A stretch of 64,000 nucleotides of DNA from Trypanosoma brucei. Lineage: Eukaryota. The DNA lies in NCBI GenBank assembly GCA_000002445.1, contig CM000207.1:224001-288000 (forward strand), read 5' to 3'. The position numbers were made by a program. Positions 44,501-47,500 of the stretch are shown here, in pieces. Positions within the stretch are counted from its first letter, which is position 1. Each line of letters begins with the position of its first letter.

Positions 44501-47500
44501 TGAACAGCTAGCAGCAGCGCATGCACATGCCGCACAGCAACGCCTGTTTGACGAACAAGTAAAAGAAAAGAAACTAGCACCCAAACCAAAGGAAATGGAC
44601 TGTAAAAACAAGGTTAAGGCTGATTGTAATGGTGAGTGCAAATGGGAAGGAACTAATGATAAAGGTGAGTGCAAAGCTAAAGGTGGGGAAGACGGAGTGA
44701 AAGCGGAAGGAAAAGATGGGAAAGCCACAAACACCACAGGAAGCAATTCATTTGTCATTAATAAGGCTCCTCTACAGCTTGAGTTTTTGGTTCTAGTATA
44801 ATTTTTTTCCTCTAAACTTCCTTTAAGAACTTTTCTATTTGATATATTTTAACACCTAAAAATACAACCGAGAAATTATTATTGTTGGCTTCCTGCACGT
44901 GTAAATTTTTTTATAGCTAAAAATTTTCTCTTTTTTTTTTGTTTTTTTGTCTAGCAAACAAAAAAGCTAAAAAGGGGGTTAGAGAGGGTTCTCCGGCTCA
45001 GGATCAGTCTTATCGTTATGGTTATTTGGGTTAGGGTTAATTTTTCTCTAACTGTTTTTTTATTTAATTGTTTTTTCTTCTTTTTTCTTTTTTTTCACAA
45101 TACGTTGCTAATTTTTTAATTTTTTTAAAGTGATGCAGCGGCCGTTTTTTTATGCGGACCCTAACCCTCCTCCCCCCCCAGCCGAGCAGCGGACTTTTTT
45201 TTTCCACCCCCGCCGCCAACTGATTTTGTTTTTTTTCCATCCGCGGCGTCGCCACGACTTGTTTTTTTTTTACGCTTAAATTTTTTTAAAGACTTTTTGA
45301 TTTATTATTTTCACCGCTTAATTTTTTTTAAGCGGCAGCAGGCACTTGATTTCCTCCCTCCTCCCATTCCTTTTAGCTTTTGAAAATTTTTAAATTTTAT
45401 TTTCATTTGTAGCTTTGTTAAATATATTTGTAACGGCGTCCCGGTTTTTTTAAAAAGCAGTTGGCCACCTTATTCGGAAACCAGCCATCTTCAATTAATT
45501 TTTTTCCTATATTCGCTATCAGTAAGCCAGCGATGCCATCAACGCCCATTTTGCCGTTTTGAATTTCAGCCCTACGACTAACGAAAGGGATCTCTTTAGA
45601 AGCTAACAGCAGAGGAACAGAATAGATGCAAAGCTGTCACGAGAAAACACAAAGAAGGATGCGCAGCTGCCGGCTGCCACTATGATGACAACAAAAAAAA
45701 TGCAACCCTAAACAAGGAGTAGAAACCACAGCAGCAGGATCAGGAAAGACACCAAAATATGGAGCAGCTGCAGCCGGATGTGCAACGCATAAATATAAAG
45801 CCGCTTCTGCGGTTGACAAAACAGTCGGTAAAAAAAGTTGTGCATTTAGAAATAGTAAATATAGTGAAGACGACAAGGACATAAAAAAGTGTCGAAATAG
45901 TAGTTTTCTACTAGAAAAAAGATGGCCCTGATTGCTGTTTTTTTTATGAATTTACTATTTTAATGATTTTTATAATTTACAAGAACTTTCTATATTTTAA
46001 CATTTCTTAATTAAATTGTGAAGGTTAGTAAAAAAATTTTGTATCGTACTGGCCTTTATATACAAAGTAGCGAGGTGATAGTGCGTTAAAAATTAATGCT
46101 ATTTTAATTTCAATTTATCCTTTTATTTTCATTATTTTATCAATATTTAAGAAATACTATAAAAATAATAATGATAGGAGAGTGTTGTGAGAGAGTGTAA
46201 ATACGAATATTATAATAAGAGCAGTAATGATAATTATAATAATAATAGAAGAGTGTTGTGAGTGTGTATATTCTAATATCACGATATGAGTGGCAAGAAA
46301 AACTAAATAGAATGCCAAATCGAGGCACATGTTGTCTCAGTCAAGGTTCAGTGGGGATAAGTGAGTGAGATGAAAGTGTGGGGAATATTAATATTGAATT
46401 AAATCTGGAGAAGGAGCAGTAATATAAGCACTGTGAAACGCAGAAACGAACATGGAATCATCATAGCTAGCACGACGCACGCTCGATATTGAGGAGGCAC
46501 AACAAAAATGGATGGAGCAAACGTAGCTACTATGCTGTACGTAACAGCGTCCAAAGGAGATGCTTCTGTTTCAAGCATCTCCAAAAACCACAACCAAAAG
46601 TATAAAATAGTACGTATGTAAACCCACAAAAAATGTTTTTGAAGTGGAAAGTATAAATGCCTGCACCTTTTCAATTACGTATTAGTATGCTTGCCACACT
46701 AAGACCATTCAAGGAACGAATGATTCATACAAAGGTGGCTGTAGATGGAAAGTTAGGTGCGCGTATTAATAAACAAAGAGTAGGGATGAAGGCAGTTTTT
46801 GACCACAAATTGGCAAACCTTAAACACCAGCAAGGCAAAGAGCTGCAAGATCTGAACAACAAGCAGGCAAGGAATCGTTGTCGTGGAAACCCCTCCTGTT
46901 ACTTTGTTGCTCCTGCGCTTGCAGAGTGTAGATGAAACTCTAAAAATAATAGGACCCATCAACAGCTATAAAGATTGAAACTTTAGATACAGAAAGGTTT
47001 TAAATTATTTTAGCGACAGGAGACATATATAGCGGAGAATAGGTTGGAATTTAATATATTATGAGGCCAAGGTTAGGTTTCAATTTTATAAATGGATGTA
47101 GCTTAGAGTTTCAGATTACAAAGACAGCTGTAATCTGTCACTTATTGGTTCTACGCTAAAAAAACATCATTATAAAAACTTGTGCAGCAGAAACTCTATA
47201 ACCAACACCTAGAGCATACATACAAAAAAAACGAAGAAGAATAATCTATGGAGCTCAACTAAGTGCGAGATTAGTTCCTTCCATAATACATGAACACCAA
47301 CTGACCAGAGAAGAGGTGACGCAGGTGAGAAACAAGTACGCTTTAGTAAGTAATCGGTGAAAGGAGTGGCCAAATTAGTCGCGAAACTGGTACGAAGAGG
47401 CATAGTTACGCGCTATGGGGTTCCCTGAGTGCTGGGACCTGTGTATGAAGCTGTGTGACATATAGAAGCTAGCCGGAAGACGGTGAGCAAGGTCTTGGAG

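Follow-up and report, generated by a model that had tools for sequence, protein, structure and literature searches.

The 64,000-nt stretch of Trypanosoma brucei TREU927 DNA described in this article (GenBank assembly GCA_000002445.1, contig CM000207.1, positions 224,001 to 288,000 of the forward strand; hereafter the window) is a variant surface glycoprotein (VSG) array. Behind one of its pseudogenes, A2, lies a short and degenerate tract that resembles the telomere repeat (TTAGGG)n. The tract is part of a 3′ untranslated region (UTR) and flank that together form a module, and a second module of the same type stands behind the unrelated VSG pseudogene A1. Both modules are probably VSG 3′ ends of the telomere-proximal type that became internal to the array. 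As part of this reading, the tract itself is likely to be what decay has left of a T2AG3-like element as found at telomere-proximal VSGs, meaning that it arrived as a passenger of the module and is not a scar.

Telomere-like tract and 3′ module of A2

The A2 locus consists of the following features, going from the pseudogene to the distal end of the module.

43344 to 44801, plus strand: VSG pseudogene A2 (A-type), 485 codons by translation, with one in-frame premature stop at 44190-44192
44803 to 44948, plus strand: 3′UTR and proximal flank of the type-2 (non-array) module, including a perfect 3′UTR 16-mer; blastn match of 69% to 34322-34478 (E 5e-14)
44974 to 44990, plus strand: A/G-rich telomere-like piece GGGGGTTAGAGAGGGTT, scoring 17 against (TTAGGG)n
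45010 to 45042, plus strand: hexamer-phased degenerate T2AG3 tract, in T2A phase TTATCG TTATGG TTATTTGGG TTAGGG TTAATT
45055 to 45192, plus strand: conserved non-telomeric block distal to the tract; blastn match of 67% to 34461-34600 (E 2.5e-12)
45193 to 45590, plus strand: distal flank, with short GC-rich islands between T7-T10 runs and loose internal repeats of 42-51 nt

A2 is assigned to the VSGs by a Pfam PF00913 match on its 3′ open reading frame (ORF). The gene is not frameshifted; its translation is broken by the one in-frame stop. The stop codon of the gene occupies 44799-44801, and the VSG 3′UTR 16-mer TGATATATTTTAACAC follows as a perfect copy at 44840-44855. The complete telomere-like tract (44974-45042) is thereby placed 173-241 nt past the stop and begins 119 nt beyond the last base of the 16-mer. 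Its perfect repeats begin 227 nt past the stop and 173 nt after the 16-mer; herein, GGGTTAGGGTTAA occupies 45028-45040 and GGGTTAGGGTTA 45028-45039, the latter being the only perfect match of two telomere units in the window. The G-rich strand is the sense strand of the VSG (plus) and points toward where a telomere would be. A first-pass annotation of this DNA had described degenerate G-strand repeats ~170-240 nt past the VSG stop, oriented as at a real telomeric VSG, and a short inverted motif beyond them. Its three motifs (GGGGGTTAGAGAGGGTT, GGGTTAGGGTTAA and the C-strand-type 10-mer CCCTAACCCT at 45159-45168) are all present where it had placed them, and the distance and the shared strand of tract and gene were confirmed.

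The departure from chance was determined by wrap-around local alignment to (TTAGGG)n, with first-order Markov simulations as the null (120 of the whole window and 4000 of the local flank). The segment ending at 45039 scores 30, which makes it the top G-strand match in the 64 kb. This score is reached in 0/120 window simulations (maximum 25) and in 0/4000 local simulations (maximum 24). The score of GGGGGTTAGAGAGGGTT, in contrast, is reached in 179/4000 local simulations and is at chance level by itself. Of the degenerate repeats that had been annotated from 44974 to 45040, it is the GGGTTAGGGTTA region that exceeds every simulation, whereas GGGGGTTAGAGAGGGTT alone does not stand out. CCCTAACCCT, with a score of 22, is the top C-strand match in the window, a marginal result given that the score is reached in 7/120 window simulations on the C strand, in 31/120 on either strand, and in 25/4000 local simulations. 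Single TTAGGG hexamers are not enriched (19 seen in the window versus 22.5 expected). Downstream of the tract, an orphan VSG fragment, 70-bp repeats, and more VSG cassettes continue to the end of the 64 kb, with no (TTAGGG)n telomere among them. The absence of a distal telomere is what is expected for a relic, and the tract is not a current telomeric element in situ.

The module of A2 is ~0.8 kb long (44803 to ~45590). Alignment of the sequences after the 16-mer shows that it departs from the ordinary flank of the array immediately after this motif. Only one other site in the window resembles it, namely the flank of A1, a VSG unrelated to A2 with Pfam PF13206 and PF10659 matches.

34321 to ~34735, plus strand: second type-2 module, behind the B-type VSG pseudogene A1 (32781-34320); without T2AG3 tract

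The tract falls into the ~106 nt between the two homologous blocks, where the A1 flank has no counterpart (indel). No decayed remnant of a tract is detectable in the flank at 34321, its local alignment being matched by 145/2000 shuffles. The best-conserved core of the distal block reads ATGCAGCGGC-N11-GCGGACC(C/T)TAA…CCCTCC, and 45109-45181 shares about 75% identity with 34516-34588 (MAFFT, matches counted by eye in the alignment). CCCTAACCCT sits inside this conserved block, at a site where the A1 copy reads CCTTAAAGCT. Since the same module stands behind an A-type and an unrelated B-type VSG, it has the character of a transferable 3′ end.

The distal flank (45193-45590) has no homologue elsewhere in the window. 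A retroelement origin of the flank was rejected, as it shows no similarity to the ingi element of the window. A search of the flank for structured RNA or DNA elements gave no meaningful Rfam match (best E = 0.66), and its single-strand fold is not unusual (z = -0.6). Loose direct repeats run through 45131-45335, reading GCAGCGG(C/A)C-T7-9 at 45135 and 45186 and (A/C)CGCTTAA-T7-8-AA at 45263 and 45305, and an 8-bp hairpin, CCGCTTAA/TTAAGCGG, is found at 45314-45335. Altogether, this stretch resembles a degenerate short-period repeat of subtelomere-like appearance. A metagenome scan for the 16-mer in a type-2 context returned 33 loci, all of them chance matches of 19-23 nt without telomere repeats.

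Ordinary array flanks, orphan fragments, and junctions

An ordinary cassette of the array possesses a conserved flank of ~200 nt, directly after which the next cassette begins with its single 70-bp repeat. In 14 ordinary cassettes, the distance from the 16-mer to the 70-bp core is 174-344 nt. At the end of the ordinary flank, with ~40 nt left to the 70-bp core, stands a conserved element of the approximate form TATGGATATTAGT.AGGGTTATAATAAT. An equivalent site is found in ~13 ordinary flanks, and four of the copies read (T)TAGGGT(T/C)A (14970, 31717, 41485, and 56740). In these four cassettes, TTAGGGTTA or 8-mer variants thereof stand 163-177 nt after the 16-mer. This one conserved element accounts for all other G-strand telomere 8- and 9-mers of the window at 163-177 nt after a 16-mer. 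The telomere-like motifs of ordinary flanks are therefore one homologous site with at most 1.5 repeat units, and never two. The first-pass annotation had held that its interpretation would fail if such motifs turned up at chance frequency throughout the regions downstream of non-telomeric VSGs. Four ordinary cassettes do carry TTAGGGTTA-like variants, but these belong to a single conserved element that never attains the two units of the A2 tract. Homology between this element and the tract was tried and rejected: an nhmmer profile of 13 ordinary flanks gives no match at 45010-45042, nor anywhere in 44803-45590. The boundary behind A2 thus shares the 16-mer with an ordinary cassette boundary and, in a loose sense, a short telomere-like motif at a similar offset, but its flank diverges right after the 16-mer, and its 70-bp core follows only at 1340 nt.

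The extra length is occupied by further features, which recur in the same order behind A1; a cut 70-bp core upstream of A2 is listed with them.

~45590 to 45963, plus strand: orphan VSG C-terminal fragment B2, from three-frame translation and from tblastx and blastn to the VSG C-terminal domains of the window
45988 to 46266, plus strand: degenerate 16-mer of B2 (45988-46003), ordinary array flank, and 70-bp cores at 46180 and 46251 (fuzzy motif search, blastn)
~34735 to 35128, plus strand: orphan C-terminal fragment B1, followed by a 16-mer at 35232, ordinary flank, and a 70-bp repeat at 35467 (translation, blastn)
41529 to 41538, plus strand: 70-bp repeat core ahead of A2, cut short (GAGTGTTGTG/CTTTAAAC…); homology to other 70-bp repeats ends at 41538

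B2, for which the start is given approximately, is frame-shifted and ends in a glycosylphosphatidylinositol (GPI) signal (…CRNSSFLLEKKMALIAVFFMNLLF*). B1 is likewise frame-broken and shortened, and carries a GPI signal of its own. The distance from the 16-mer to the next 70-bp core thereby amounts to 1340 nt for A2 and 1103 nt for A1, with an orphan fragment and a second 16-mer in between. This arrangement is seen in 2/2 type-2 flanks and in 0/14 ordinary ones (Fisher p ~0.008, computed by hand). B1 and B2 are not related to each other by blastn, and so the two arrangements look like separate events. Beyond the 70-bp repeat at 35467, the A1 locus (architecture 34321-35470) contains an (AAT)23 run.

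Upstream, the two loci differ. The region before A1 is ordinary, unlike that of A2, where most of the 1.7 kb before the gene (41760-43300) has no homologue in the window, including the upstream regions of the other cassettes. The break at 41538 could be the left boundary of an imported segment, as judged from the cut repeat. All VSG remnants downstream of A2 have the orientation of A2.

Origin of the module

A short and degenerate block of T2AG3-like sequence on the sense strand, ~200 nt past the VSG, is an established feature of telomere-proximal flanks. Hall et al. (2013, PMC3708902) refer to Aline & Stuart (1989) for "TTAGGG-like" repeats located 3′ of the gene, which serve them as a marker of telomere-proximal VSGs and as a flag for minichromosomal VSG reads. 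At VSG221 (AJ271641, nt 211-322), Glover et al. (2007, PMC1807955) describe a T2AG3-like tract of 106 bp, directly 3′ of the gene and proximal to the real telomere; 46 bp of T1-2AG1-6 come first, and 10.5 degenerate repeats after them. When the telomere was removed with I-SceI, all mapped healing events fell inside this tract (PMC1807955). The distance from the VSG to the telomere repeats ranges from 200 to 1590 nt in 17 expression-site clones (Hertz-Fowler et al. 2008, PMC2567434).

The A2 tract agrees with the VSG221 element in lying a couple of hundred nt past the VSG with the G-strand on the sense strand. It also agrees in having an A/G-run part, here of 17 nt and by itself at chance level, that precedes the degenerate hexamers, and in the non-telomeric sequence that continues distally. 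It differs in being more decayed and smaller (~67 nt overall, about 60% of the 106 bp, with ~5 units) and in being array-internal with no telomere beyond; the likeness is drawn from the published description, not from an alignment. A second precedent concerns mobility. The 3′ ends of telomeric VSGs are known to transfer as modules, a process named 3′ donation (Hall et al. 2013, PMC3708902). As in 3′ donation and as with other orphan C-terminal fragments, the 3′ end at A2 and B2 is a module independent of the N-terminal domain, and recombination has left a C-terminal piece. 3′ donation is described at expression sites during switching, whereas the A2 product is fixed in a silent array, with its join outside homologous coding sequence.

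A telomere-proximal origin of the two modules is hence favored by several lines of evidence. The tract exceeds chance, is on the sense strand, and lies 173-241 nt past the stop. In place, strand, and rough two-part make-up it matches the published VSG221 tract, and TTAGGG-like repeats 3′ of the gene are the marker used for telomere-proximal VSGs. The type-2 flank is unlike array spacer in reaching the 70-bp core after 1103 or 1340 nt instead of 174-344 nt. The module follows two unrelated VSGs, as telomeric 3′ ends do in 3′ donation, and conserved non-telomeric sequence continues distal to the tract, as it does at VSG221. In addition, the 70-bp repeat before A2 is cut mid-core, and the sequence upstream of the gene is without homologue in the array. 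The first-pass annotation had proposed that the cassette was once telomeric and entered the array by telomere healing, fusion, or conversion. Telomeric ancestry of its 3′ end is indeed likely, considering the published hallmark, the non-array flank, and the illegitimate join to an orphan fragment; healing or fusion as the route is not upheld, as detailed below.

The orphan C-terminal fragments and the cut 70-bp repeat of A2 suggest two possible routes. On the first, the module together with VSG A2 would have replaced the 5′ portion of a cassette already resident in the array, by copying or by joining. On the second, the array would have been extended past a former chromosome end. Either way, the right-hand junction would be illegitimate, probably microhomology-mediated, and located inside the C-terminal coding region of a resident VSG; what would be left of that VSG is an orphan C-terminal fragment, still followed by the flank and 70-bp repeat normal for the array. 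For break repair, T. brucei depends on homology and microhomology (a subject addressed in PMC2377438). In a telomeric setting, a tract of this kind is a back-up seed on which a telomere is added de novo when the existing one is lost. At its array site, the A2 tract is most likely a passive relic in decay. Both the joining mechanism and this lack of function are what we infer from the arrangement of the locus.

Several points weigh against the favored interpretation. The tract is short, with ~5 phased units of which only 2 are perfect. Ordinary array flanks carry, at a comparable offset, a TTAGGGT(T/C)A motif of 7-9 nt. The sister flank possesses neither tract nor remnant, so that the tract could be a gain instead of an ancestral part of the module. 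The telomeric origin of the module is derived from published descriptions, not from sequence alignment. Finally, the history of the gene itself is relevant. A2 is 99% identical to "VSG 1820" of strain Lister 427, which ends at the premature stop of A2, and 97% identical over its full length to the intact 485-aa "VSG 1125.500" of EATRO1125. Literature searches on the names of these orthologues found nothing. The premature stop is thus common to Lister 427, whereas the gene is intact in EATRO1125. As the nonsense allele is common to Lister 427 and TREU927, the A2 gene and its mutation predate the divergence of these stocks. Any internalization is then old, or the gene has perhaps always been internal. 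At the position of the premature stop (44190-44192), VSG 1125.500 of EATRO1125 has a tryptophan codon.

These points leave room for an alternative that is considered unlikely but is the strongest of its kind. The type-2 flank may be a minority family of array-internal flanks that was never telomeric, with the TTAGGG-like stretch arising locally (e.g., by slippage in a T/G-rich spacer) or by coincidence. The absence of a tract or significant remnant from the sister copy at 34321, the presence of just two perfect repeats, and the conservation of A2 across three strains fit with such a family, and the ordinary flanks show that a conserved non-telomeric element can hold TTAGGGTTA. Against it, the tract scores above every simulation, and its position, strand, and two-part composition fit the published telomere-proximal element. 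Moreover, each of the two type-2 flanks adjoins an orphan VSG fragment, an arrangement not expected of an ordinary flank in its original place.

That the tract is the leftover of a real telomere is improbable. Such a leftover would have been internalized by healing and subsequent end fusion, or by a head-to-head fusion in which G-strand repeats are followed by inverted C-strand repeats. The G- and C-strand motifs do lie 120 nt apart, each being the top match on its own strand in the window, and seeding of telomeres at such tracts is documented (PMC1807955). However, 45055-45192 is collinear and homologous with the tract-less A1 flank, so that the tract lies internal to the flank family, between two homologous blocks, and marks no breakpoint, which largely refutes this origin. 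CCCTAACCCT, offered in the first-pass annotation as an inverted telomeric motif, loses its value as evidence by lying within the conserved block and by its marginal statistics, and the VSG remnants downstream are not inverted relative to A2. A head-to-head fusion in particular was rejected, as a 120-nt T-rich spacer separates the motifs and no inverted flanking sequence is present. The interstitial telomeric sequences of vertebrates, plants, and fungi, which go back to end fusions, repair insertions, or subtelomere duplication, are comparable in that a short degenerate telomere block resides at a non-terminal site in a recombination-prone subtelomeric gene family. At A2, however, there is no head-to-head array or sign of a repair junction, and the tract travels within a larger flank module. 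Literature searches for telomere repeats at interstitial or internal sites of T. brucei arrays returned nothing relevant.

Still less probable is a maintained functional element made up of the tract and the region of T-runs and GC-islands, be it a binding site for TRF/RAP1, a boundary of transcription or replication, or a latent telomere seed under selection. The T2AG3-like tract at VSG221 seeds telomeres in vivo (PMC1807955), and the block 45109-45181 is conserved in two copies. Yet two copies are all that the 64 kb contain, they are 63-69% identical and differ by large indels, among them the tract itself, no structural signal is found, and the tract sits behind a pseudogene.

An assembly artefact, with a telomeric clone or read misjoined into the TREU927 array, is barely credible: VSG arrays are repetitive and one 100-N gap exists in the window (8427-8526), but this gap is 36 kb from the tract, the tract shows neither a long repeat array nor an abrupt end, a second, independent case of this architecture is present at 34.3-35.5 kb, and the A2 ORF including its premature stop is reproduced in independent Lister 427 sequence.

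Window context and significance

Elsewhere in the window, the array character is evident from 9 copies of the 16-mer TGATATATTTTAACAC at no more than 2 mismatches (0.11 expected in 64 kb), with further, more degenerate copies found by fuzzy motif search, and from 70-bp repeat cores (motif search) and Pfam VSG domains. Two VSGs are intact and have exactly the sequences XP_803409.1 and XP_803413.1 (T. brucei brucei TREU927). On the minus strand, 18048-22334 contains three ORFs with domains for endonuclease, reverse transcriptase, and RNase H, and resembles an ingi-type non-LTR (long terminal repeat) retrotransposon inserted into the array in the orientation opposite to the VSGs. The 100-N assembly gap adjoins a perfect (AAT)82 run (to 8773), with a 70-bp repeat core at 8777, and hence the true length of the adjoining 70-bp/TAA repeat region is not fixed by the assembly.

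On present evidence, the A2 tract adds one case to an element already known, and its setting in a subtelomeric array that recombines frequently is no surprise. Beyond this, one may speculate, with considerable reserve, that silent arrays bear the scars of a recurrent capture of telomere-proximal cassettes, or of extension past old ends, by microhomology joining, its signature being seen twice in 64 kb. Retained tracts could herein be latent seeds, with a distal break making an internal VSG telomeric. As a weaker extension, the TTAGGGTTA-containing element that ends every ordinary flank might be an older relic of the same kind; its homology to the tract is not supported by the nhmmer profile.

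If the type-2 flank is of the telomere type, the A2 locus and its sister at 34.3 kb would be physical records of traffic from the telomere to the silent archive. Such movement of VSGs is far less documented than conversion from the archive to the expression site. The combination of a type-2 flank and an orphan C-terminal fragment would then constitute a simple marker by which these events could be counted genome-wide. It would also help to ask how VSG arrays grow, and whether internal T2AG3-like tracts rescue broken subtelomeres.

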